Numbered from the stretch's first letter, positions 3,023 to 47,107 are shown. The stretch: 64,000 bases of DNA from an uncultured Alphaproteobacteria bacterium (GCA_963706365.1 OY970150.1:1468265-1532264); one strand, 5' to 3'. Notes: generated by a model from the sequence alone, not told the origin. Translations and numbers: made by a program.

Positions 3023-4582
3023 ATGCCTTCACGTTTTCATATTATTGCCCTTACACTGGCACTAACCATCATCGGCCTATGGCTGTTTTGGTATAAATAC
3101 AGTGTATTGCGTTACCCTTTAACCCCTGATTCAGAATACCGCAGCTGGTATGTAGAAACCACTTTAACAGCAAGCCCCAAAGCAAATGAACCGGTTACAA
3201 TTCAAATGTGGTTGCCGTCTAAAAGTAATAACCAGCTGGTTAGCTTAGATGAAACGTTCGTAAGCAGTGGCTATGGTATTCAAAAAAAGTTTGATAGTAA
3301 AACGGGCAATCGTTGGGTTATCTTAACAAAGCGCAATTTAAAAGAATCGGAGTCTATTCTCTATCGTACCACCTTGGTTGAGCTGGACTCTCGTGTTGAC
3401 AGACAACAACAATCAGCCATTAGTAGCCTCTATAATCAGGATAATCGCTACCAGCTCAATCTGCCTGATAATGCCCCGCTGTTTATTGCTATTGATTCCA
3501 TTATCGAAGAAGCCCGCTCTCGTTCTGCCGATGAAAGCAGCTTTGCAACAGAAATTTATCAGCTGGCTGCTTTGCAAGATGAGCGTACACGGATTATTTC
3601 TTATGAAGCAGAAGAACTTAAGCAAAATAAAAACTTGCCCCGCGCAGATGCCTTGGCTGTTCTTCTGTTAAACACTGCTGGCATACCGGCACGGTTAGCG
3701 AATGGTGTATTGCTAGCAGAAGGGCAGCGACGCGTATCCATTAATCATTGGACAGAAGTTTGGATAGATGGACGTTGGCAGGTTTTTACAGATAATATTT
3801 TGCAAAGCAAACCTAAGAATTACTTAACCTGGTGGTATGGTTATCAGCCACTTGTGCGCTATAGCGGGGCGCGTAATTTGGATACATTGATATCCGTTAA
3901 ACGCAACCTGGATAAGGCCTTAACCAGTGAATTAGCGGAGCAAAGACAAAACGCCTTGCCTATTCCAACGCTGTACCAGCTGCCGGTTGGCACACAGCTA
4001 ATTTTTGAAGTATTATTACTGATTCCTATCGGTGGTTTGGTCATTGCCTTTTTACGACAAATTATTGGCTTAATAACCTTTGGTACATTTATGCCCGTAT
4101 TGATTGCGCTGGCGTTCAGAGAAACAGGCTTATTTGCGGGTATTGTTTCTTTTTCTATTGTTGTTTTTCTGGGGTTACTTGTAAGAAGTTATTTCCATAA
4201 GTTACAGTTACTACTGGTGCCAAGGCTGGCTGCTGTCTTAACTGTGACCGTGCTTATTCTAATTGCTTTTAGTTTATTGGTGCATGCATGGGGATGGTCT
4301 GTTGGTTTAAGTGTATCTCTGTTCCCTATTGTGATTATGGCGATGGTTATTGAACGGATGGCCTTGCAATGGGATGAATATGGCGCGAAGAAAGCTATTC
4401 ACACCGGGTTGGGAAGTTTATTGGCAGCAGTCATTAGCTATTTTATAATGAACCTGAAAATTGTGGGGCACTTGCTGTTTACCTTTCCGGAATTACTCTT
4501 AGTTATTTTGGCGCTAACGATTATAATGGGGCGTTATAGTGGTTACAAATTAACAGAGTATTGGCGTTTTAAACAATTATGA
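3023..4582 (+). CDS. inactive transglutaminase-like domain fused to a C-terminal 7-TM region
   Basis: Transglutaminase-like core with the catalytic Cys replaced by Ala (LPRADALAVLLLNTAGIPARLANGV ... HWTEVWIDGRWQVFTD keeps the His/Asp positions). The C-terminal ~200 aa contains about 7 hydrophobic helices. The stop overlaps the next gene's start (ATGA at 4579-4582). Confidence 0.65.
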   Translation: MPSRFHIIALTLALTIIGLWLFWYKYSVLRYPLTPDSEYRSWYVETTLTASPKANEPVTIQMWLPSKSNNQLVSLDETFVSSGYGIQKKFDSKTGNRWVILTKRNLKESESILYRTTLVELDSRVDRQQQSAISSLYNQDNRYQLNLPDNAPLFIAIDSIIEEARSRSADESSFATEIYQLAALQDERTRIISYEAEELKQNKNLPRADALAVLLLNTAGIPARLANGVLLAEGQRRVSINHWTEVWIDGRWQVFTDNILQSKPKNYLTWWYGYQPLVRYSGARNLDTLISVKRNLDKALTSELAEQRQNALPIPTLYQLPVGTQLIFEVLLLIPIGGLVIAFLRQIIGLITFGTFMPVLIALAFRETGLFAGIVSFSIVVFLGLLVRSYFHKLQLLLVPRLAAVLTVTVLILIAFSLLVHAWGWSVGLSVSLFPIVIMAMVIERMALQWDEYGAKKAIHTGLGSLLAAVISYFIMNLKIVGHLLFTFPELLLVILALTIIMGRYSGYKLTEYWRFKQL

Positions 4583-5484
4583 TCTGGTACAAACGCTATA
4601 AGGAAAAAGGTATTGTGGGCATTAATGCGCGTAATAGCCGTTACATATTTCCCAATAACAAGCGAAAATATTTTCAGCTGGTTGATGATAAGCTGGAAAC
4701 GAAGACGGTGGCGGTGCAGGCTGGTATTCCTGTGCCTGAACATTATGAGACAATAATATACCAAGCACAGCTTAAGAACCTGGAACAAATTTTAAAACCT
4801 TATCATTCATTTGTTATAAAGCCCGCGCTGGGCAGTGGCGGGCAAGGCATTATGGTTATTGAAAAAAGGCGCGGCGATTATTTTGTAAAAGCCAGTGGCG
4901 ACGCTGTAACCATGGCTGAAGTTCAGCAACATATCAGTAATATTTTGAGCGGCCTATATTCATTAGGTGGGCAAAGCGATAAGGCTATTATTGAATATCG
5001 GGTACAAATCGACCCTGTTTTTAGTGATATTTCATGGAAAGGTGTGCCTGATATTCGGGTACTACTTTATAAAGGCATACCTGCCATGGCGATGCTGCGC
5101 TTACCAACCCGTGCTTCGGATGGTAAGGCTAACCTGCATATGGGCGGTATTGGGTGTGGTATCAATCTAGAAACAGGTATGACGACCACTGCTACGCAAG
5201 GGAATAAATATATTACCACACACCCTGAAACTGACGTAATTTTAAAAGGTCATATTATTCCTGATTGGCAAAATATTCTTAATATGGCTAGTCGTTTTTA
5301 TAGTCTAACAAAACTAGGCTATCTGGGGGTTGATATTGTACTAGATGAAAAACTAGGCGCCTTAGTATTGGAAGTAAATGCGCGCCCGGGTATTAGTATT
5401 CAAATTGCCAATAAACAGGGGCTTGAACCCATTTTACGAAAAATTGATCAATCTATTACTAATATTCACTTAAATATCACATAA
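4579..5484 (+). CDS. RimK-like ATP-grasp amidoligase (alpha-L-glutamate ligase-related protein)
   Basis: ATP-grasp fold motifs (VIKPALGSGGQGIMV, GYLGVDIVLDEKLGALVLEVNARPG), 301 aa. Translationally coupled to the upstream 7TM-transglutaminase gene. Confidence 0.65.
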   Translation: MIWYKRYKEKGIVGINARNSRYIFPNNKRKYFQLVDDKLETKTVAVQAGIPVPEHYETIIYQAQLKNLEQILKPYHSFVIKPALGSGGQGIMVIEKRRGDYFVKASGDAVTMAEVQQHISNILSGLYSLGGQSDKAIIEYRVQIDPVFSDISWKGVPDIRVLLYKGIPAMAMLRLPTRASDGKANLHMGGIGCGINLETGMTTTATQGNKYITTHPETDVILKGHIIPDWQNILNMASRFYSLTKLGYLGVDIVLDEKLGALVLEVNARPGISIQIANKQGLEPILRKIDQSITNIHLNIT

Positions 5485-5565: not shown

Positions 5566-6765
5566 ATGATACAGTTTGTTAAAAACACTTCCGGTACTTT
5601 TGCTATAATTGCTGCCATTGTTTTATTACCTATGGTAGGTTTAGGCGGGGCTGTATTAACATCTGGTAATGCTGTTTTAAATAAATCAGATTTGCAAAAC
5701 GCTGCTGATTTAGCTGCTATTTCTGCTAGTGCCACACAATTGGAAAATACTATAAAAGGCATGTCTGCGGAAGAATCTAGCCGAAAAGGTGGGGAAACGA
5801 TGCAACGTTTTTATGCCTACAATATAGATAAAAATCCAGATGAATTTGAGTTTACAGATGAGGGGACTGGAAGATTATCTATTAATGATGCTGGCAGTAC
5901 AGAAATTGCATTTAATGCCTATAATCCTGACAGAATTAACTATAATATTACGGCAACAGCAAGTGGAAATTATGAAGCTACTGCAGGTGGCGAGAGCACT
6001 TTTGAGTTGGTATATATGTATGATACTTCAAATTCAATGTACCGAACCGAAAGCCGAGGGGTAGACAGCGGGAAAACAGGAGTTGAACGTGTTCTAGAGA
6101 GTGCACAATCAAACTATCTTGCGCTCTTAGGGGGCTTATCGCGTGAGCAAAAAGACAATATTAGAGTGGCACAAGGTAGTTATCACTCTGTTACTCAGTT
6201 TATGACACCTGTGTTTACCAGTAATGAAAATCGATTAATCGCTGAAATTGAAAGGCGCTACCCTGGCAACAGAGTTGTTGGTGACCCCAGAACATCCCAT
6301 CCAAGTTATACGCGGGGTAAAACAAATACCCATGAGGCTGTTAGCGCTGCAATTGAAAAACTAAATAATAACAACTTTAATGTTCCCGGCAAAACAAATA
6401 GTCAGATCATAGTACTGATGACAGATGGGGCGCCTAGTTTGAGAACAGAGAACGATGCCTACGGCAATTTTGATCGATTTAATTTTTTTGATACCAGTAT
6501 GACTGAAAAAGAGATTGAAGTTAGACGAATTTCAGAATTGTGTAAATCTTTCACCGATAAACCGAACAACTATATATTTACTATCTATTTTGAAACATAC
6601 AGACACAACCCAACTGACAAAATACTTGAAGTTCAAGGCATGCAGAATTGCCAGAATGCTGGTTTCTATGAAGCAAGAACAGGCGCCGAGCTTGATGAGG
6701 TTTACGGAGCTATCAGAAGAAAACTTAGTGACTTTACTTACAATAAAGTAAAAATTGTTAAATAA
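5566..6765 (+). CDS. TadE/TadG-like pilus-assembly-type protein with C-terminal vWA domain
   Basis: N-terminal TadE-like hydrophobic segment (SGTFAIIAAIVLLPMVGLGGAVLTSG). vWA MIDAS residues are present: DTSNS (DxSxS), a conserved T (NTHEAV) and LMTDGAPS. Confidence 0.5.
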   Translation: MIQFVKNTSGTFAIIAAIVLLPMVGLGGAVLTSGNAVLNKSDLQNAADLAAISASATQLENTIKGMSAEESSRKGGETMQRFYAYNIDKNPDEFEFTDEGTGRLSINDAGSTEIAFNAYNPDRINYNITATASGNYEATAGGESTFELVYMYDTSNSMYRTESRGVDSGKTGVERVLESAQSNYLALLGGLSREQKDNIRVAQGSYHSVTQFMTPVFTSNENRLIAEIERRYPGNRVVGDPRTSHPSYTRGKTNTHEAVSAAIEKLNNNNFNVPGKTNSQIIVLMTDGAPSLRTENDAYGNFDRFNFFDTSMTEKEIEVRRISELCKSFTDKPNNYIFTIYFETYRHNPTDKILEVQGMQNCQNAGFYEARTGAELDEVYGAIRRKLSDFTYNKVKIVK

Positions 6766-12604: not shown

Positions 12605-13652
12605 ATGATTTTAACGGCGAACGCTAAAAACAATTTTGAAGAGGAAAAACAGTTTTTACGCGATGTATTTGAAAAAGAAGATCGTAATGGCTCTTCATTT
12701 TATATTTATAACTATGACCAGCGTTATTACAAAGTGCTTTCCGCCTGTGCCAAACTGCGGCTAAAAACACGTAATCTGCCAGAAGGCAACCCGCATTACA
12801 TTGAAATAAATGGCGATGACTGGGCGCGTATCATGGAAGATAATGAAGCCGCTGAAAAAGCAGCAGGAAAAAAAATCAACGTCGCAACAAGAAAAGAAAC
12901 CTTCTCAAAACGCTGAAAATTCAAAACGGGCAGAGCAGAAAAACAAAAAAGAAAATGTTGTGCCCATCAAACAGCATGAAGATGCGGCACCCAAAAAGAA
13001 TACTTTCAGCCTTTATGATGATGAAGAAACTGAAAAATATGATCCATTTGGTTCACTGAAAAACAATAAAGAAAAACAAGCGAGCCAACCACAACAATTT
13101 GAGATAGAGCAATCTGAATCAGAGCCAGACATTGAATCCGCCATTGAAGACCTAGTGAATCAACAAAAACCTGAAGAAGTTTATGTTCCTGAGCAGCCTG
13201 TTGAACAGGAAGCGAGGCCAGAACCTATGTCGCAAACAGCGCCTGCAGAACAGAAAGAAGAACCTATTATGCAACAAGCACCCGTTAATACCGCAAAAAA
13301 ATCTGATGAAGCAACGCAAAGCAATGCACCGCAACACAATCAATCCGATGACGAGAACCGTTTTCAAGGCGGTGGCAAACGATTAGAAGCCCTTCGTCAA
13401 CGTGAAAAAGCGGTGCAAATTCGTGAGCAAGCGGTTGATTCCAGAGAAGAAGAGCTTGATGCTGCTGAGCAGGATCTCATTAAAAAACAACAGTCTATGC
13501 AGCAAGATAAACAACGCCTGGATACACAGCGTCAGCAAATAGAAGAAGTGCGCAGCAAGGTTAATTCCGAGCAGCAAGAGCTGAAAAAAGCCCGTCAAAG
13601 CCTTGAAAAGCTTTCACAAGCACTTTCTGAAACAATGGATGTCTTGTCTTAA
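12605..13652 (+). CDS. hypothetical highly charged coiled-coil protein, apparently frameshifted at an A8 tract
   Basis: Two overlapping ORFs (12605-12916 and 12810-13652) are joined by a +1/-1 shift at aaaaaaaa (12868-12875). The C-terminal part is a Lys/Glu/Gln-rich low-complexity region followed by a coiled coil. Confidence 0.4.
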
Positions 13653-13847: not shown

Positions 13848-14420
13848 TTAATCCGGACTAACGGCATCTAGATCTTGTAGGCCTACGCCCGCCGCGCGAA
13901 ACGCCGGGTTAATGGGTAAGCCTAAAGCGGCCACGGCTGTATCATCCAGCAAGCCGGGGCTGTTGCTTTGAACCTGTGCTACCAACTGGGTTAAAATAAC
14001 TTGTTGTTCTTCTTCTGGAAAAGCACTGGCTGTTACAATCAAAATTTCTGCAACATTTGTAGGGTCAGCGGCCACAATAGCAGCCACAATATCGGCTAGC
14101 TGATTCTGTATAGCCGCATTATCGCTGTTTGCTAATTGTTGTGCCAATAGGGAGGCTGTGCCGGATGAGCCGTTATTAACAGCAAAACTTGCAATCTGTT
14201 GGCTAAGAGAGGGGTTGGCAATGGCCAAGGTTGCGGCCGCCTGAGAACAAATTGCTGTATTGTCTACATTATCAGGTGATGTATTCGCCTCGTTTTGTAC
14301 ACAAGCGGCATTCAACGCAGTGCTGATATCTGTTGGCAAAGCTGTTTGTGCCAGGCTTGCATTGGCTTGAAAAAAAGTAAGGGCAGCCAGGCTAAACAAA
14401 GAAGCAGTCTTTATCATCAT
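13848..14420 (-). CDS. secreted Ala/Gln/Asn-rich low-complexity protein with signal peptide
   Basis: N-terminus MMIKTASLFSLAALTFFQANASLAQ, with an AXA cleavage-site-like motif. 190 aa. Confidence 0.45.
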   Translation of the reverse strand: MMIKTASLFSLAALTFFQANASLAQTALPTDISTALNAACVQNEANTSPDNVDNTAICSQAAATLAIANPSLSQQIASFAVNNGSSGTASLLAQQLANSDNAAIQNQLADIVAAIVAADPTNVAEILIVTASAFPEEEQQVILTQLVAQVQSNSPGLLDDTAVAALGLPINPAFRAAGVGLQDLDAVSPD

Positions 14421-36925: not shown

Positions 36926-37008
36926 ATTATTAGGATAGCTACGAAATGTAATATATTGTACCCCGCACTTGTTGGGTATTGTTGCTTGGCTTATTCACTA
37001 GCTAAAAA

Positions 37009-37142
37009 CGACGTCATTCCAGCGCAGGCTGGAATCCATGCCACTTAATTTAAGGCTTTATGGTGGTTCAGGAACAACTTTGCACCAGCATATTGGTTTG
37101 ACTTTCCTAGGAATAGATTCCGGCCGCCGCTGGAATGACGGG
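37009..37142. repeat. inverted repeat cgacgtcattccagcg / cgctggaatgacgg, about 100 bp apart
   Basis: Perfect 13-14 bp arms at 37009-37024 and 37127-37142. The left arm also contains a short hairpin ccagcgcaggctgg. Confidence 0.4.
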
Positions 37143-37322
37143 TTGATAGAGTCGTGCAGCAACGCGCAACAAGTGTGGAGAATAGTTAAGCTGGCATAGT
37201 ATATGTTGATGGTTTAGTCTCATCATTCAAATAAAATCGGCAAAACCCTAATGAAATACTTAAATATTTACATAACAACAATTATTATGCTATTCTATTA
37301 ATGTGATTATAGTCACATAATT

Positions 37323-39485
37323 ATGCGCATAAACCGATATCTAAAAATTTTGCTGCTACTAACCTGCCTTTTGGTGGGTGATTCGGCATGGGCGCAATCT
37401 TGTTCCAATGGTAGTATTGATTCGTTAGATGAATTATTTGCAGGGGGTGTAAACTCAGCTGCAGCTATGGCAACCTGTGCCGCAGAAGGGAATTGCACGC
37501 CCTGCAATGGGGGTGCGGGTTGCTACTTTGGTTACAAACGTGGATCTAACTGGCAGGTTCATTCTGATAGGTTGGATAGCAACGGATATGCTAATATGGG
37601 ATATTGTAGCTTACAACGACGCAGTAACCCCAGCGGTACACCTCAAGGTGCTGATCAAATATGTTATGAAAATGCTGCACGACGTGTGAATAATATCAAG
37701 AGCGTCTTTCAAAGTAGGAATATTGACCCTGAGCAAAATGTAGGATGGGTTATGACGGCTGTAGACATGTTGAACCAATTTGGAGAGGGTAATAAAGGTT
37801 TATTAGAACAATATGCTGATTTATTAGTTATAGCGCAGGACAAAGGTTTGACAGGGCCTGATGCTGCATTATTTGCACGTTATAATTCATGTTATGAACC
37901 AAATTCTGGTAGATGGGCTTGTTCGGCATTTAATGAAACAACTGGTTGTACGAATCAAAATAAACATGTTAGTCAAATAGCAAGTGTTCTAAAATCTGTT
38001 TGTGCTGATTATGGTGGTGCTGGGGGTAGTGGAGGCACTGTAATAGACGCGCCAGAAACTGCAAATCCATGCCAGTTCCAACCAGTTTCTGGTGATTATA
38101 GCGGGTCGAATACCTATCAAGAACCAAAATATGAACCTGAAAAAATAGAATTCCTAACCTGCTGGTCATGCAATTTAATTGAAACAATTATGCTAACTGC
38201 TGGCACACTTGGCGAGCGTATATTTGATGCCCTGAAGGGAGGATTAAAAGATATTATTCTAATAGTCGCAACGATTATTATCCTGTTTAGTATTTTTAAA
38301 ATGTTACTGCCATTTGGCCCTTTAGAGCAAGGTCGCCAGATGTTAAACCGCATTGTTGCTGTCATCGGTGTCACAAGTATTTGTATGCTTTTGCTATCTT
38401 CAATGGATTTTTACTGGAAATATATTTACTGGCCGGTGCTAGACGGTGCAATGAAAGCGTCACAATTAATCATTTCTGAAAGTGATGATGCCAATATTGA
38501 TGATTATGATAAATCAAAATACGAATATAATGATCTTGATCCGACATCAGAAGAGATAAATAAGGCTATGGCCGCGCAAATGACAGATACTGTGCGCGAT
38601 ATTAACGAAGCCCTTAGTAAAGGCGCGGCTGTTGGTTGGGCGATGTTGTCTTCTATTTACAATTATAATTTTACCAACTGGGTTACGGGCATAGCAAATT
38701 TCTTTCGGGTATTATTACTGGTATTTAGTGCCGCAATTTTAATGGCGGTGTCCTTTTATGCCAGTTTTGTCTTTTTATATGTGGTTATTGATGTGGCTAT
38801 CCGTTGGACATTTATGAGTGTTTTGGCGCCATTTGCCATTGCCGCCTTTGCTTTTCCGCAAACGCGAGGCTTTGTAAGCTTTTTAGGGCGTGGATTAATG
38901 GAATCGGCCACTGCGCTTATTTTGGTAACTGCTGTTGCCGGGTTATCGATGCAAATGATTGAACAGGTGCGCATAGATCCGCGTAGTTATGATGATCAGG
39001 GGCAGGAAAAATCAAGCGAATACAGCCAATATAAAATGACCTCTTCTTCAGATGATGATAGTTTCAAGGAGTATATTAAAAAAATTCAGGAAGGTAAGGC
39101 GCTTTCCCCCACCATGAATACAACCGCTTTTTGGCACATGACAACCATGTTTATGATTGTGGGGGGATTAATGTTTAAAATGTCTGGTGTGGCCAGCTTC
39201 TTGGTTGGTTCTGCGGTTGGTGTTGGTGTTGCTGCCACAGCTGCGGCCTTCACGGGTGGTGCAACGGCGGTTGCCACGGCACCAATGAAGGGCGGCGATC
39301 AAATAAAAACAGCTTTGGATAACGTTGCCAAAGGGGAGATGTTAAGGCAACAACAGGAAAAAGATAAAGGGGGAGGGGATGATCAGAAAGATGATGCCCA
39401 GCAGAAAAATGATTCTGGAGGCGGAGAAGCCGCATCTGCGCCCGCTGAAGCCCCTGAACCTGCCTCTGTAGGTGCCGGTTCATGA
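37323..39485 (+). CDS. large secreted Cys-rich polytopic membrane protein, VirB6/TrbL-like (paralog 1)
   Basis: Signal peptide (...GDSAWAQ). About 250-aa Cys-rich N-terminal domain, at least 6 TM helices, the motif FKMLLPFGPLEQG after the first helix, and a Gly/Ala-rich C-terminus with an acidic low-complexity tail. ATGA overlap with the next gene. Confidence 0.4.
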   Translation: MRINRYLKILLLLTCLLVGDSAWAQSCSNGSIDSLDELFAGGVNSAAAMATCAAEGNCTPCNGGAGCYFGYKRGSNWQVHSDRLDSNGYANMGYCSLQRRSNPSGTPQGADQICYENAARRVNNIKSVFQSRNIDPEQNVGWVMTAVDMLNQFGEGNKGLLEQYADLLVIAQDKGLTGPDAALFARYNSCYEPNSGRWACSAFNETTGCTNQNKHVSQIASVLKSVCADYGGAGGSGGTVIDAPETANPCQFQPVSGDYSGSNTYQEPKYEPEKIEFLTCWSCNLIETIMLTAGTLGERIFDALKGGLKDIILIVATIIILFSIFKMLLPFGPLEQGRQMLNRIVAVIGVTSICMLLLSSMDFYWKYIYWPVLDGAMKASQLIISESDDANIDDYDKSKYEYNDLDPTSEEINKAMAAQMTDTVRDINEALSKGAAVGWAMLSSIYNYNFTNWVTGIANFFRVLLLVFSAAILMAVSFYASFVFLYVVIDVAIRWTFMSVLAPFAIAAFAFPQTRGFVSFLGRGLMESATALILVTAVAGLSMQMIEQVRIDPRSYDDQGQEKSSEYSQYKMTSSSDDDSFKEYIKKIQEGKALSPTMNTTAFWHMTTMFMIVGGLMFKMSGVASFLVGSAVGVGVAATAAAFTGGATAVATAPMKGGDQIKTALDNVAKGEMLRQQQEKDKGGGDDQKDDAQQKNDSGGGEAASAPAEAPEPASVGAGS

Positions 39486-41071
39486 GCCGCTTAATCTGTG
39501 CGTTTATTCTTATACTAGGGCTTTGGGTTCCTGCAATGCAGGCCGAAGCACAGAATAGTGGGCAGAATTGCCAAGTATTTAGAACTCCTGAACAAGTCGC
39601 GGCTTGTGAGGCGGGCAGAGCAAATCCAAATTCCCAGCCAACGCAAAATACGGATCCGCCTACAGATGAAAGCGATGTGCCGCAGTGTTTTACTGTTAAA
39701 GATAAGGTCAAGAGAGCTGCTTGTGAATCTGATCGAGAAAAAGCCCTTGCCCTGGTTGAGGCGTCAAAAAATGAATGTGTGGGATGTGCAGTCGCTGAGG
39801 CATTCTTAGTAGGTGCTATGAACCTAAGTGTGGGGATGAGCGATGCCCTAGGTGATACAATGATTCGATTGGCTATCGTTATTTTTATTGTTTGGTTAAT
39901 GTTTCAGGTGGCCAAAATGCTTTTACCTTTTGGCCCACTTGATAAAAGCCAGAAAACACTAAACTTAATTGCCACCAAGCTGGGTATTATGATGTTTATT
40001 GTTGTGGCCTTGCAAAGCTTGCCAGTTTACGAGCGTTTAATGTATGGTGTTATTGACGGCGTTATTGGTTTTAGCGGTGTTATTTTGGAAGCCACAGCAG
40101 ACTATAGTGGCCAGGTAACAGAAGCCGTTGTGGAAAGCGGTAAAGCCGATGGCACCATCGATAAAGATGTTACCTTTAATCGGGATACCGTGCAGGTGCG
40201 TAGCGGCAATGATGCTTTTACCGGCGCGGGTGCTATTGATGCCAATGCACCAACAGAAGCGCTGCGCCAAAACCTGATGGACAATCTTAATAACCAGATC
40301 AGTTTAGTACAACGAACCATTGAAGAACCCTTGTGTATCGGCATGCAGATTCTGGGTTTTGACGAAAGACAATGTTTTGCTGGCCGCACGGAAAGTGCGC
40401 GCACCGTGGGAGACTGGATAACGGCAACTCTTAAACAGGGCTGGAGAACATTACAGTCTATTGATAATGGCCTTAAATATTTAAGCCGATTAGAGCAGGA
40501 CAGAGATCAGGCTATTAATGAGTTTATGTTAAACTTGATTGCCGCCTTCATTTTAATTGCTGTTTATGGACTAATCTGGTTAAAGTACCCGCTGGCTTTG
40601 CTGGATGTTGTTTTAAGATGGGCGGTCATTTTAGTATTGTGGCCTGTAGTGGTTATTACGCTAGCGTTTCCACTGTTGCGCGGTACCACAGTTACCTTGT
40701 TAAAAGGCTTTGCGAACGCCTGTCTGGAATTGGTTTTTCAGGCCATTATTGTGGGTGTAGTTGTCTCGATCGTGCAACAAATTGTTGCAACAACGGATAT
40801 TAGAGATTTCGCGTTATTGGCATCAGCTGACTCTTCCATAAACTCCTATACCTTACAGCGCGGTACATACATTATGATCATTCTTTGTGGCTTTATGATG
40901 CTGCACCTAATGAAGCAAGCCCCACAATTTGCTGCCATCTTCATTAGCAGCACGATGGATACAAAAGTTGCTGCTGGAATCTGGAACCAGGTAACCACTT
41001 ATTTCTGGATTGCTGCTGATGCTGCAACCGGTGGGATGACACAGGCAAGGAAAGTTATTCCGATTAAATAA
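39482..41071 (+). CDS. secreted Cys-rich polytopic membrane protein, VirB6/TrbL-like (paralog 2)
   Basis: Signal peptide (...PAMQAEAQ). About 100-aa Cys-rich N-terminal domain, the same VAKMLLPFGPLDKS motif, and multiple TM helices. Confidence 0.4.
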   Translation: MSRLICAFILILGLWVPAMQAEAQNSGQNCQVFRTPEQVAACEAGRANPNSQPTQNTDPPTDESDVPQCFTVKDKVKRAACESDREKALALVEASKNECVGCAVAEAFLVGAMNLSVGMSDALGDTMIRLAIVIFIVWLMFQVAKMLLPFGPLDKSQKTLNLIATKLGIMMFIVVALQSLPVYERLMYGVIDGVIGFSGVILEATADYSGQVTEAVVESGKADGTIDKDVTFNRDTVQVRSGNDAFTGAGAIDANAPTEALRQNLMDNLNNQISLVQRTIEEPLCIGMQILGFDERQCFAGRTESARTVGDWITATLKQGWRTLQSIDNGLKYLSRLEQDRDQAINEFMLNLIAAFILIAVYGLIWLKYPLALLDVVLRWAVILVLWPVVVITLAFPLLRGTTVTLLKGFANACLELVFQAIIVGVVVSIVQQIVATTDIRDFALLASADSSINSYTLQRGTYIMIILCGFMMLHLMKQAPQFAAIFISSTMDTKVAAGIWNQVTTYFWIAADAATGGMTQARKVIPIK

Positions 41072-43434: not shown

Positions 43435-45686
43435 TTGCGCCTTTTGCATAATATGTCTATAGACAGCACAATGGCAGAAACCACTGAAACGCAACAAAAA
43501 ACTCCGAAGACTCAATTAGATACGCATGTAATGGATTCAGGCTTGATATGCCTGGCTATTATGGCGAAAGTATTGGGTAAACCGGCTGATCCGGAACAGT
43601 TGCGCCATCTAAGCGGGCGGGGCAGTGGGGAAATGGATACCAATACATTATTGCGTCTTGCAAAAGATATTGGCTTTAAAGCACGCCTAATGAACACCTC
43701 TTGGGAGAGGTTGAATAAAGTAGAATTACCGGTTATCGCGCAACACCAATCAGGGGAATATTTTCTCTTGGCGCAAGTTGGAGACGATAAAGTTGCCGTG
43801 CAAGAACCACGTAGCCAGCAGGTAAAAATTCTGGATAAAGAAGCCTTTATGGCGAATTGGAGCGGTGCGTTATTATTATTAACCACCCGGGCGCAACTGG
43901 CTGGTGAAAACCGCAAGTTTGGTCTTAGCTGGTTTATTCCCGCCATTCATCGCTATCGTAAAATTTTAAAAGAAGTTTTAATTGTTTCTTTTATTTTACA
44001 ATTGTTTGCGCTGGCAACACCGCTATTCTTTCAGGTCATTATTGATAAAGTTCTGGTGCACCATAGCCTGAATACCCTGAATATTATGATTATTGCCCTA
44101 TTGTGCGTATCATTTTTCGAGGCCGTTTTAGGCGGGCTAAGAACCTATATATTTACCCATACCAGTAACCGTATTGATGTTGAACTGGGGGCAAGGCTAT
44201 TTAAGCATATGCAGAATTTACCCATTCGCTATTTCGCTAGCCGAAGGGTAGGGCATATTGTGGCAAGGGTACGAGAACTGGAAGGCATCAGACAATTTCT
44301 AACCAGCTCCAGCATTACCGTGTTAATCGATAGCTTCTTTACCATCGTGTTCTTAATTGTGATGTGGTTTTACAGTAAAAACTTGACACTATTAGTGCTG
44401 TTAACGTTGCCATTTTATATTGCGTTAACCTGGTTTATTACCCCGGTTCTACGCCGTCGACTAGAAGAAAAATTCATGCGCGGTGCTGAAAATCAGGCTT
44501 TTTTGGTTGAAAGTATCAGCGGTATTGAAACATTAAAATCTAGCGCTATTGAACCACAGTCACAGCGAAAATGGGAAGAGTTACTGGCAGGTTACACAAG
44601 CTCAGCCTTTAAAGCCTCGCACACCTCTAACATTGGCCAACAAGGCGTGCAGCTGGTTAATAAGGTATCAACTGCATTGGTTCTGTGGTTCGGTGCCACT
44701 TATGTTATTGAAGGCACACTAACTGTTGGGCAACTTGGTTGCCTTTAATATGTTGGCCAGTCGGGTGAGTGGTCCTGTTATGCGTTTTTCGCAATTGTGG
44801 CAGGATTTTCAGCAGGCTAAAATTTCGATTGATCGTTTAGGCGATATTTTAAACTCGCCGCAAGAACCAACTATTAAGGCTGGCTCAGTGACGCTTGCCG
44901 CCTATCAAGGGTGATATTAAGTTTGAAAATGTTACGTTCCGTTATCAACCAGATGGCGCAGCGGCTCTGGATAATGTTACTCTTAAAATACCGGCCGGGC
45001 AAGTAGTCGGTATTGTCGGCTCTTCCGGTTCAGGAAAAAGTACGTTGGCTAAACTGGTGCAACGCATGTACATTCCTAATAATGGCCGTATTATGGTGGA
45101 TGGCGTTGACTTGGCGATGGCTGATCCTGTATGGTTGCGCCGACAAATCGGTGTGGTTTTACAGGAAAATGTTTTGTTTAACCGTACAGTGCGTGAAAAT
45201 ATTGCGCTTATCTAACCCGGGCATGGATAGCGAGCGCGTTATTGCCGCAGCAAAACTGGTTGGCGCGCATGAGTTTATTTTAAAATTGCCGCAGGGTTAT
45301 GACACTATTTTAGATGAACGTGGCGGCAATTTATCTGGCGGACAGCGTCAGCGGCTGGCTATGGCACGGGCCTGGTAACCAACCCGCGCATTCTGATTTT
45401 AGACGAAGCAACTTCGGCCCTGGATTATGAATCGGAACGGATTATTCAGGATAATATGTCGAAAATTGCGCACAATAGAACTGTATTAATTATTGCCCAC
45501 CGACTTTCCACTGTGCGCACCGCTGATAAAATTATTACGATGGAAAATGGTTGTGTTATTGAAGAAGGTTCACACGATGAATTGTTAAAACCGGCGGACG
45601 TTATGCACAATTGTATAGTTATCAGACCGGAGGGCGAGATGCTTAGTAAAATGTATTCAATGCCTGATATGAGACGTATTCAATGA
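43435..45686 (+). pseudogene. type I secretion ABC transporter (HlyB-like, C39-like domain + TMD + NBD), fragmented
   Basis: Intact N-terminal 437 aa, then NBD pieces in 4 ORFs (44726-44914, 44895-45215, 45013-45378, 45456-45686) in different frames. Walker [10 protein letters not shown] and signature LSGGQRQR are recognisable. Confidence 0.7.
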
Positions 45687-47107
45687 GTTTTGCATTCAAT
45701 CGATTGGGAAAAATATACTACGCCTGGAAACATGCCGGCGAGATAGAAAAAGAAGAAAAAAAAGCAAAAGGCAATCAAAGCGCCACAAGGATGAATTACA
45801 GTTTATGCCGGCCGCGTTGGAAGTGCTTAGAAACACCGCCATCGCCCACAGCACGCATTACTCTGTGGCTAATCATTATCATTTTCTTGCTTGCTATTGT
45901 GTTGGCAACTATCGGTAAAACAGATGTGGTGGCCACTGCTGCTGGTCAAATTATCCCCTCTGGCCGACGTAAAGTTATTCAGCCGCTGGAAACATCTAGG
46001 GTACAAAATATTTATGTTGAAGAAGGCCAGTTCGTTGAAAAAGGTGAATTGCTGATTGAACTGAACCCGGTTGAAAGCACCGCAAATAAGCACCAGCTGG
46101 ATGATAATCTGCAGAAAAAACGAGCTGGATGCCATTCGGTTAAAAGGTATTACAGAATAACCCTGCCTATCCCAAGGCAGATTTTCCACCAGATACGCCC
46201 GGCCAACATTGTAAAAGCCCAGCAAATTTTAATGCGCTCGCAAGCTTCTGAATATCGTTCACAGCTAGCCAACCTTCAGCAAATCGAATTACTCAGGAAA
46301 ACTCACAAGCGCGTGCAATTCGGGCGGAAATCGATGCGTTTGCGAAAGTGTGTTACCGGATATCAGGCGCGGCTTGAGCAACAGGAAAGTCTTGATTGAA
46401 AAGAACTCTGACAACCCGTACACAGCTGTTGCGCGTAAGGCAGGAAGTGAATGACACGAGCAATCAGATTAATGTGCAGCGGCAATTGCTGGCACAAGCT
46501 AATGCTGCAGCGCAAACAGCACGACAGGAACAAGAAAGTTATATTAATCAATATCAAAACCAGCGTCTGGAAGAATTGGCCGAAGCAGAAGCTCGTATTT
46601 TCGGGCTAGAGCAGGAGGTTATTAAGGTGGACGCTAAAGTTGCGGCCTTAAACTGATGGCACCAACAAATGGTGTGGTGCAGGAATTAAAAGTTAGCACT
46701 GTGGGTGGGGTCGTGACACCGGCGCAAGAACTTATGTATGTCGTGCCGCAAGATGCTGTTTTGGAAGCGCGTGCATTGCTACCTAATAAAGACCGTGGAG
46801 CGGTTGGCAGAGGGCGATATGGCCAATGTTAAAGTGGAGGCTTTTCCCGTTTACACGTTACGGTACGATTCCCGCCAAACTAAAAACAGTTTCCAGCGAT
46901 GCTATTCAGGATGAAAACCTGGGACCTGTTTTTGCGGTTATTGGCACGCTAGAGCGCGATTATGTTATTAGTGATGAAGGGGAGCGTATTCGTTTAACCC
47001 CCGGCATGGCTGTAACGATGGAAATTAAAACAGACGATCGCCGTATTATTGAATTTATTCTAACGCCAATTATTAAAGGCTTTAAGGAAGCTGCAAGAGA
47101 ACGTTAA
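45683..47107 (+). pseudogene. type I secretion membrane fusion protein (HlyD-like), fragmented
   Basis: Three or more ORF pieces (45683-46399, 46396-46656, 46826-47107) with coiled-coil and beta-barrel segments. Confidence 0.65.

Follow-up and report, generated by a model that had tools for sequence, protein, structure and literature searches.

What does a tandem pair of membrane protein genes encode when it carries the outline of a type IV secretion system (T4SS) component and lies among housekeeping genes? The question is raised by a 64,000-nucleotide stretch of DNA from an uncultured Alphaproteobacteria bacterium (GCA_963706365.1 OY970150.1:1468265-1532264), referred to here as the window, with positions counted from its first letter. 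In this window, two overlapping open reading frames (ORFs), ORF1 and ORF2, occupy positions 37323 to 41071. A sequence-only reading had described them as giant, Cys-rich paralogs of the VirB6/TrbL type, resembling the VirB6 arrays of Rickettsiales, with no virB3/virB4/virB8-11 genes anywhere in the 64 kb. Our analysis indicates that the pair are very divergent members of VirB6/TrbL and belong to a subfamily that is mostly unannotated. The two genes are arranged as follows:

37323-39485, plus strand: ORF1, 720 aa
39482-41071, plus strand: ORF2, 529 aa, translationally coupled paralog of ORF1
39482-39485, plus strand: ATGA stop/start overlap of ORF1 and ORF2, read directly from the sequence as GGTTCATGAGCC

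The gene boundaries and the overlap at 39482 agree with those reported earlier, and this ATGA overlap implies that the two genes are translationally coupled. ORF1 and ORF2 are true paralogs. When the two proteins were compared with each other by BLASTP, two colinear high-scoring segment pairs were obtained, the first joining ORF1 residues 280-389 to ORF2 residues 99-207 (29% identity; E 3e-13) and the second joining ORF1 residues 421-534 to ORF2 residues 303-419 (E 1e-7), in line with the paralogy proposed from the sequence. Over their trimmed cores, the proteins share 27% identity. Their parts, including signal peptides read from the sequence without a predictor, are listed here, with TM standing for transmembrane helix:

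ORF1 residues 1-24: putative signal peptide, ending in LLVGDSAWA and followed by QS
ORF1 residues 25-279 (window 37395-38156, plus strand): Cys-rich N-domain, kept in nine orthologs
ORF1 residues 280-283: CxxC
ORF1 residues about 283-650: polytopic core with a predicted VirB6 fold
ORF1 residues about 655-720: acidic, Gly-rich, low-complexity C-terminal tail
ORF2 residues 1-23: putative signal peptide, ending in WVPAMQAEA and followed by QN
ORF2 residues 24-98: short Cys-containing N-region
ORF2 residues 99-102: CxxC, followed by TM1 and then KMLLPFGPLD
ORF2 residues about 183-340: enlarged TM2-TM3 loop, holding two Cys

A Sec signal peptide at the start of both proteins is plausible and would place their N-termini in the periplasm. 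Cysteines are concentrated in this part, with 14 of the 16 in ORF1 within residues 27-283 and six in ORF2 within residues 30-102. TM1 is strongly hydrophobic and is immediately followed by KMLLPFGPL(E/D) in ORF1 and ORF2 alike. Hydropathy, combined with the helices of the AlphaFold2 model described below, gives ORF1 six to seven TM segments (about 303-325, 340-362, 455-478, 483-508, 525-546, and 606-635), in agreement with the polytopic topology of VirB6. The TM2-TM3 loop measures ~90 aa in ORF1 and ~160 aa in ORF2, and three more strong hydropathy peaks are present in the C-terminal half of ORF2. The architecture given in the sequence-only reading, consisting of signal peptides, Cys-rich N-domains, and at least five further TM helices, was thus seen again by sequence reading, by hydropathy and, for ORF1, in the AlphaFold2 model; the Gly/Ala stretches and the acidic Gly-rich tail of ORF1 are also present. 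The word giant was an overstatement: canonical VirB6 is about half as large as these proteins, and most RvhB6 are larger.

The assignment to VirB6/TrbL was approached through the relatives of the pair. A word-indexed search of 5.8 billion proteins returned only ORF1 and ORF2 themselves and one further protein, P0003; neither the window proteins nor P0003 carry a precomputed Pfam domain. An exhaustive HMMER search, in which a profile of the two trimmed cores was run against 1.84 billion cluster representatives, yielded 243 relatives at E<=1e-3, including 75 at E<=1e-10 and 21 at E<=1e-30. When the best 80 of these 243 were scanned, 48 had a Pfam TrbL/VirB6 match of their own at E<=0.01 (best, 5e-12). 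Among the relatives, P0007 (1e-47 to the pair profile) and P0013 (4e-41) reach 30.2 and 30.8 bits, respectively, above the TrbL cut-off of 25.9, and the first gene of the relative locus L003 reaches 51.5 bits (1.5e-13). ORF1 itself has a sub-threshold TrbL match, which is colinear and joins residues 317-549 to positions 2-183 of the 215 in the profile. The transitive link to TrbL runs via the same region, since the TrbL-matching stretch of P0007 and P0013 aligns to ORF1 at about 463-550, corresponding to TM3-TM5. At the sequence level, transitive homology therefore shows the predicted proteins to be members of VirB6/TrbL. Two family profiles, A1 and A6, produced noise or low-complexity matches only when run against PDB sequences.

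The structure of the ORF1 core leads to the same family. ORF1 residues 270-665 were modeled with AlphaFold2 from a family alignment of 106 sequences, giving a predicted local distance difference test (pLDDT) score of 85.4 and a predicted template modeling (pTM) score of 0.81. In a Foldseek search against the PDB, the best nine matches of this core are all TrwI/VirB6 chains of the R388 T4SS (probability, 0.99-1.00; best E, 4e-4; template modeling score on the target, 0.51-0.62), and the match that follows them has an E of 0.33 and a probability of 0.06. Because the model is confident and its Foldseek matches are to TrwI, the VirB6 fold of the modeled ORF1 core can be regarded as established. 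The single-sequence AlphaFold2 model of ORF2 is uninformative (pLDDT, 44), and ORF2 is therefore assigned to this fold by paralogy. The sequence-only reading had named two outcomes that together would speak against its assignment, namely, no Pfam match and an unrelated fold. Pfam indeed fails on both proteins, whereas the fold is that of VirB6.

Compared with TrwI/VirB6 of R388 (PDB 7O3V, 8RT9, and 8RTD), the ORF1 core shares the fold at 12-15% sequence identity. ORF1 and ORF2 possess in addition a putative cleavable signal peptide, a Cys-rich N-domain predicted to be periplasmic, a CxxC where helix 1 begins, a PFGP turn after TM1, and a longer TM2-TM3 loop; the low-complexity tail is an extra feature of ORF1 only. 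Moreover, the TrwI gene is part of a complete trw operon, unlike the genes for ORF1 and ORF2. Relatives of the pair match PF04610, the Pfam family of Agrobacterium VirB6 and P-type TrbL, but the Pfam model begins C-terminal to their conserved CxxC, and the pair has no operon context. DotA of the Legionella Dot/Icm type IVB secretion system (PDB 9NGY) is also among the closest known systems.

The KMLLPFGPL(E/D) motif that the sequence-only reading had recognized is indeed shared by both proteins. It is part of a longer signature, as a CxxC that had been overlooked is found exactly 46 residues N-terminal to the Lys of KMLLPFGP in both ORF1 and ORF2. Both copies of the signature match a custom DNA pattern:

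38160-38321, plus strand: ORF1 signature CxxC-N42-K-M-L-L-P-F-G-P, spanning helix alpha-1/TM1, with the pattern match at 38160
39776-39937, plus strand: ORF2 signature CxxC-N42-KMLLPFGP

Residue counts were taken from a family alignment of 150 members. Of these, 71 have the strict CxxC...K-x-L-x-PF motif, 68 of them with a Cys-to-Lys spacing of exactly 46, and the two CxxC cysteines are kept in 133/137 and 128/137 aligned relatives. Further conserved positions (ORF1 numbering) include P503 (142/147), D490 (123/147), R515 (113/147), and P371 (121/142). Both proteins retain all of CxxC, PFGP, P371, D490, R494/W495, P503, and R515, and the R494-W495 pair is common to both paralogs and to close relatives. 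The VirB6 family has a conserved, functionally essential Trp in its central TM region (PMC2653234). W495 of ORF1 is a tentative candidate for its counterpart; among 147 members, W is no more than the commonest residue in this column (52 W, 36 L, and 15 F). The CxxC-N42-K.L.PFGP signature provides a simple handle for detecting the subfamily.

The N-domain of the ORF1 type has its own conserved residues, with C-x2-E-G-x-C, Y-x-G-H-x-D, and N-x-G-x-C-S motifs that are invariant across nine orthologs. Its profile matched no known family, and against PDB sequences it gave nothing below an E of 0.5. The motifs (C-x-A-E-G-N-C ... G-H-x-D ... N-x-G-W-C-S) had suggested a lysozyme-like, SLT, or Rpf-type hydrolase by resemblance. 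This candidate found no support in sequence comparisons, in which the domain has no Pfam, NCBIfam, or PDB match and hhalign against the SLT genes neighboring relatives (see below) gave a probability of 0.04.

The relatives also show how such genes are organized. Seven loci from GTDB species genomes encode relatives, all of them metagenome-assembled genomes of uncultured Alphaproteobacteria, one labeled Holosporaceae. A cluster-mate of one ORF1-type relative is labeled Holosporales. In metagenomes, a hand-written DNA pattern of the signature retrieved 33 loci, with true members in 12. Tandem arrays of three to four paralogs are present in L003, L004, L005, L006, and L009, consistent with the likening to expanded paralog arrays in the sequence-only reading. 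Orthologs of ORF1 are the second-to-last genes of such arrays (L003 gene 3, with 31% identity over 589 residues, and L004 gene 2), and orthologs of ORF2 are the last genes (L003 gene 4 and L004 gene 3, as well as the last gene of L002). L002, L003, and L004 all retain an ORF1-type gene followed by an ORF2-type gene, at 26-50% identity, and the closest relative is L002, a metagenome contig that has this order at 46-50% identity.

Such arrays call to mind the Rickettsiales, in which RvhB6a-e are tandem, highly diverged VirB6 paralogs with flanking extensions and belong to a T4SS that is not encoded in one operon (PMC2653234). The rvh systems are found in genomes of Rickettsiales that have duplicated RvhB4, B8, and B9 and lack VirB5 (PMC11077975). 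In a comparison by description only, the present genes resemble RvhB6a-e as multicopy, diverged, tandem VirB6 paralogs, two here and three to four in L003-L006 and L009. They differ in that no rvhB3-rvhB4 precedes them, in their length (529-720 aa versus 670-1150 aa), and in their lineage, which is Holosporales or unclassified Alphaproteobacteria. That they are RvhB6 proper, and the window part of a Rickettsiales genome with a standard rvh archipelago, is highly improbable. Multicopy VirB6 is a hallmark of rvh (PMC11077975, PMC2653234), and rvh genes are scattered and their RvhB6 proteins have large extensions flanking the TrbL domain. However, the rvh B6 array directly follows rvhB3-rvhB4, and RvhB6b and RvhB6e of R. 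typhi are annotated as TrbL/VirB6 (PMC2653234), whereas ORF1 is preceded by livG and livF and neither ORF1 nor ORF2 has a Pfam match. Upstream virB3/virB4 genes are likewise absent in L004, L006, and L009. Of the earlier assignment, the VirB6/TrbL part is supported; the pair is not demonstrably of the RvhB6 type. The NCBI labels of the relatives, which read Holosporales, Holosporaceae, or unclassified Alphaproteobacteria, also point away from Rickettsiales. In addition, trpE, argG, OTCase, and acetolactate synthase are encoded in the window, and such biosynthetic genes are unusual for classical Rickettsiales.

If the proteins have a VirB6 fold, do they serve a T4SS? The neighborhoods of the relatives, viewed over up to 10 kb per locus and on contigs many of which are short, contain one informative case. 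In L016, a family gene whose product is homologous to both ORF1 (5e-14) and ORF2 (2e-18) by BLASTP lies ~4.5 kb from two pilin-like (virB2-like) ORFs, a VirB3-like ORF with two TM helices, and a VirB4 gene (Pfam CagE_TrbE_VirB, 5.9e-11; TrwK, 2e-15). In addition, a divergent SLT-type gene adjoins the family gene in six loci (L016, L019, L035, L038, L039, and L040), and a type IV prepilin peptidase (A24) gene stands beside the SLT gene in L016, L038, and L040, of which the L016 copy was Pfam scanned. A small conserved ORF also recurs in 10 metagenome loci (L012, L016, L019, L022, L030, L031, L035, L038, L039, and L040); neither the window nor the array loci contain it. The features concerned are:

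L016:8932-9693, plus strand, and L038:5477-6079, minus strand: SLT lytic transglycosylase, the Pfam family of VirB1; these two copies were Pfam scanned, those of the other loci assigned by homology
L016:8426-8692, minus strand: conserved ~85-aa ORF without a Pfam match, in the same orientation as the single-copy CxxC-VirB6 gene and directly upstream of it

Other domains are fused to the family core on the same polypeptide in some of the 80 scanned relatives (M23 in eight, SLT in one, and NlpC/P60 in one). Given these fusions, the SLT neighbors, and L016, the subfamily shows a recurrent association with cell-wall hydrolases and, at least once, an association with a set of T4SS genes. The sequence-only reading had left the choice between a stand-alone channel and a T4SS component; the presence of L016 in a virB2/3/4 locus tilts it toward the latter.

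On balance, we consider it probable that ORF1 and ORF2 are ancient, co-translated VirB6/TrbL paralogs that form the inner-membrane base of a T4SS or pilus apparatus encoded elsewhere on the chromosome. Both proteins would be exported by Sec, followed by cleavage of their signal peptides, which would leave the Cys-rich N-domains in the periplasm, probably disulfide bonded. The helical cores would enter the inner membrane and assemble with each other there, probably into a hetero-oligomer. This assembly would be the membrane base of a type IV apparatus, for secretion or a pilus, with partner genes at a distance, as in rvh. In R388, five VirB6 copies form an inner-membrane platform under the VirB5 stalk (PDB 7O3V, 8RT9). 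By analogy, the translational coupling and the conserved order of the anciently diverged paralogs suggest that ORF1 and ORF2 may form a fixed hetero-oligomer.

Several results weigh against this T4SS reading. At the sequence level, ORF1 scores only 6.8 bits (E=7) against Pfam TrbL (PF04610, gathering score 25.9 bits) and ORF2 has no match, the NCBIfam scan of both proteins returned nothing significant, and the family profile does not match the TrwI sequence. In the window, the 64 kb to which the T4SS search of the 1.87-Mb source genome was confined, Pfam scans of all ORFs of at least 150 aa and of 14 small intergenic ORFs placed no VirB4, VirB8, VirB9, VirB10, VirB11, or VirD4 among the families listed; two of the four scans list the best 25 families, so that weak VirB2, VirB3, or VirB7 matches may be missed. 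Around the arrays in L002-L006 and L009, over distances of up to 10 kb, and beside the single-copy members L017, L022, and L035, no T4SS core gene was reported either. A tblastn search of 72,556 plasmids with the ORF1 core and L003 gene 1 found no relative, and the ORF1-type and ORF2-type genes of L002 (L002:8971-12810) contain about three frameshifts. Finally, in Holosporales the conserved secretion system is the type VI system, while T4SSs are sporadic (PMC11909080, PMC9992710).

The statement of the sequence-only reading that the 64 kb hold no virB genes is thus in keeping with the scans, in that no strong core T4SS match is among the families listed, and no other T4SS gene (virB2-B5, B8-B11) was reported together with the pair in the window. 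Likewise, tblastn of the L016 SLT, pilin-like, VirB3-like, VirB4, A24 peptidase, and 85-aa ORF sequences against the window gave nothing. The pair is instead flanked by housekeeping genes, with argG and livM/livG/livF upstream and murD, yebC, a type I secretion system (T1SS) exporter, and gyrB downstream.

These surroundings can also be taken to mean that the VirB6 fold serves here as a platform independent of any T4SS, an envelope scaffold or conduit that anchors Cys-rich domains, cooperates with peptidoglycan hydrolases, and has expanded into heteromeric arrays. We think this unlikely. In its favor, most sampled loci have housekeeping neighbors only (array flanks encode IMP dehydrogenase, isocitrate dehydrogenase, UppS, FtsW, RNase PH, and others), and no VirB4-sized or VirB4-like gene was found upstream of the arrays in L004, L006, and L009, which have no upstream virB3/virB4. 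The single-copy members L017, L022, and L035 stand among RecD2, UvrD, and aminotransferase genes; a reading of the L017 neighbors as virB2-B3-B4 was ruled out, the large ORF being a RecD2 helicase. The recurrent fusion to, or neighborhood with, SLT, M23, and NlpC domains fits a role with hydrolases, but an SLT neighbor is also the expected look of a virB1-containing T4SS locus. The ~85-aa ORF of no detected family directly upstream in 10 loci and the lack of relatives on the plasmids searched add to the case for such a platform, as does the lack of a conserved T4SS in Holosporales (PMC11909080, PMC9992710). Against it, the L016 member stands beside virB2-like, virB3-like, and virB4 genes, the view of each locus spans at most 10 kb on contigs that are often short, and for Rickettsiales the scattering of T4SS genes is well documented (PMC2653234). 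Nor is any VirB6-family protein known to function without a T4SS.

A stronger form of this idea holds that the CxxC-PFGP family as a whole has left the T4SS, forming self-sufficient inner-membrane platforms that, in Holosporales-like alphaproteobacteria, would have diversified into conserved heteromeric arrays (two to four paralogs with distinct Cys-rich heads in the periplasm) and would act without VirB4, VirB11, or VirD4, for example, as an envelope conduit or anchor in host interaction. We rate it as quite unlikely.

A very unlikely alternative is that ORF1 and ORF2 are non-functional or decaying, what remains of a T4SS or integrated conjugative element that has been lost, and are still open by chance. 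Decay is visible close by: an HlyB-like T1SS exporter gene (C39 peptidase and ABC membrane domain; 43435-46700), located 2.4 kb downstream of the pair, contains several frameshifts, with Walker A (45018) and Walker B (45390) in frame 3 and LSGGQ (45331) in frame 1, and the HlyD-like gene that follows is likewise fragmented. Both have the look of pseudogenes, which suggests that genome decay is under way; this and the lack of reported partner T4SS genes in the 64 kb speak for the remnant reading. The frameshifted L002 pair, near which insertion sequence and resolvase genes are found, could be in the same state. One of its frameshifts, at the TM1/PFGP junction, is outside any long homopolymer, and these frameshifts could be real decay or assembly errors. 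However, the frame of ORF1 and ORF2 runs uninterrupted over 3.75 kb with the ATGA coupling intact, both proteins keep the residues from CxxC to R515 enumerated above, and ortholog order is maintained across lineages of 26-34% identity. Furthermore, the pair does not differ from its flanks in G+C content (0.42-0.44), and its neighbors in the window include no mobile-element genes. As 3.75 kb have stayed open and family-invariant residues have been kept while the nearby HlyB-like exporter is broken, the pair looks to be maintained by selection.

The subfamily is distinguished by the combination of the CxxC-N42-K.L.PFGP signature, the Cys-rich N-domain of the ORF1 type, tandem heterologous paralogs outside the Rickettsiales label, and a chromosomal site away from T4SS ATPase genes. 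Diverged multicopy VirB6, which has been treated as a hallmark of rvh (PMC11077975), is thus encountered in a different and poorly studied group. Of ten relatives looked up, six have names in the sources: hypothetical protein in five cases and, in the sixth, a name taken from the fused M23 domain. Because of such names, and because precomputed Pfam domains are lacking for P0003 and the window proteins, genes of this kind would escape standard annotation, and surveys may count too few T4SSs in these symbionts. Should the arrays function in the absence of a VirB4 ATPase, the VirB6 fold would have a new use; should they be part of a scattered T4SS, the expansion of VirB6 would have evolved or been retained outside Rickettsiales. 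Either outcome bears on why host-associated alphaproteobacteria multiply VirB6.

Two further elements lie between livF and ORF1:

36963-37178, no strand assigned: nested inverted-repeat hairpin, ~216 nt, -103 kcal/mol, z -8.1
37267-37296, plus strand: candidate sigma-70-like promoter, TTTACA-18-TATTCT with extended TG, 27 nt upstream of the ORF1 ATG, based on a consensus match only

The sequence-only reading had noted an inverted repeat of 134 bp upstream of the pair. The repeat exists, but it is nested and larger: the inner arms (37012-37042 and 37110-37140) measure 31 nt each, and the outer arms (36963-36985 and 37156-37178) measure 23 nt each. It holds two ATTCCrG-N8-CyGGAAT palindromes and occurs once in the window. 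The hairpin may be an insertion resembling a miniature inverted-repeat transposable element (MITE) or a repetitive extragenic palindromic (REP) element, or the terminator of the liv operon, and its membership in the ORF1/ORF2 unit is uncertain. Promoter-like matches are no more frequent in this region than in shuffled sequence. An Rfam search identified two tRNAs only.

Elsewhere in the window, ORFs of 280 and 190 aa at 12810-13652 (plus strand) and 13848-14420 (minus strand) have no Pfam match at E<=0.001. At 3023-5484, a gene for an inactive transglutaminase-7TM fusion is paired with a sugar-transfer-associated ATP-grasp gene, and this pair is followed at 5566-6765 by a gene for a TadE/G-like VWA protein.

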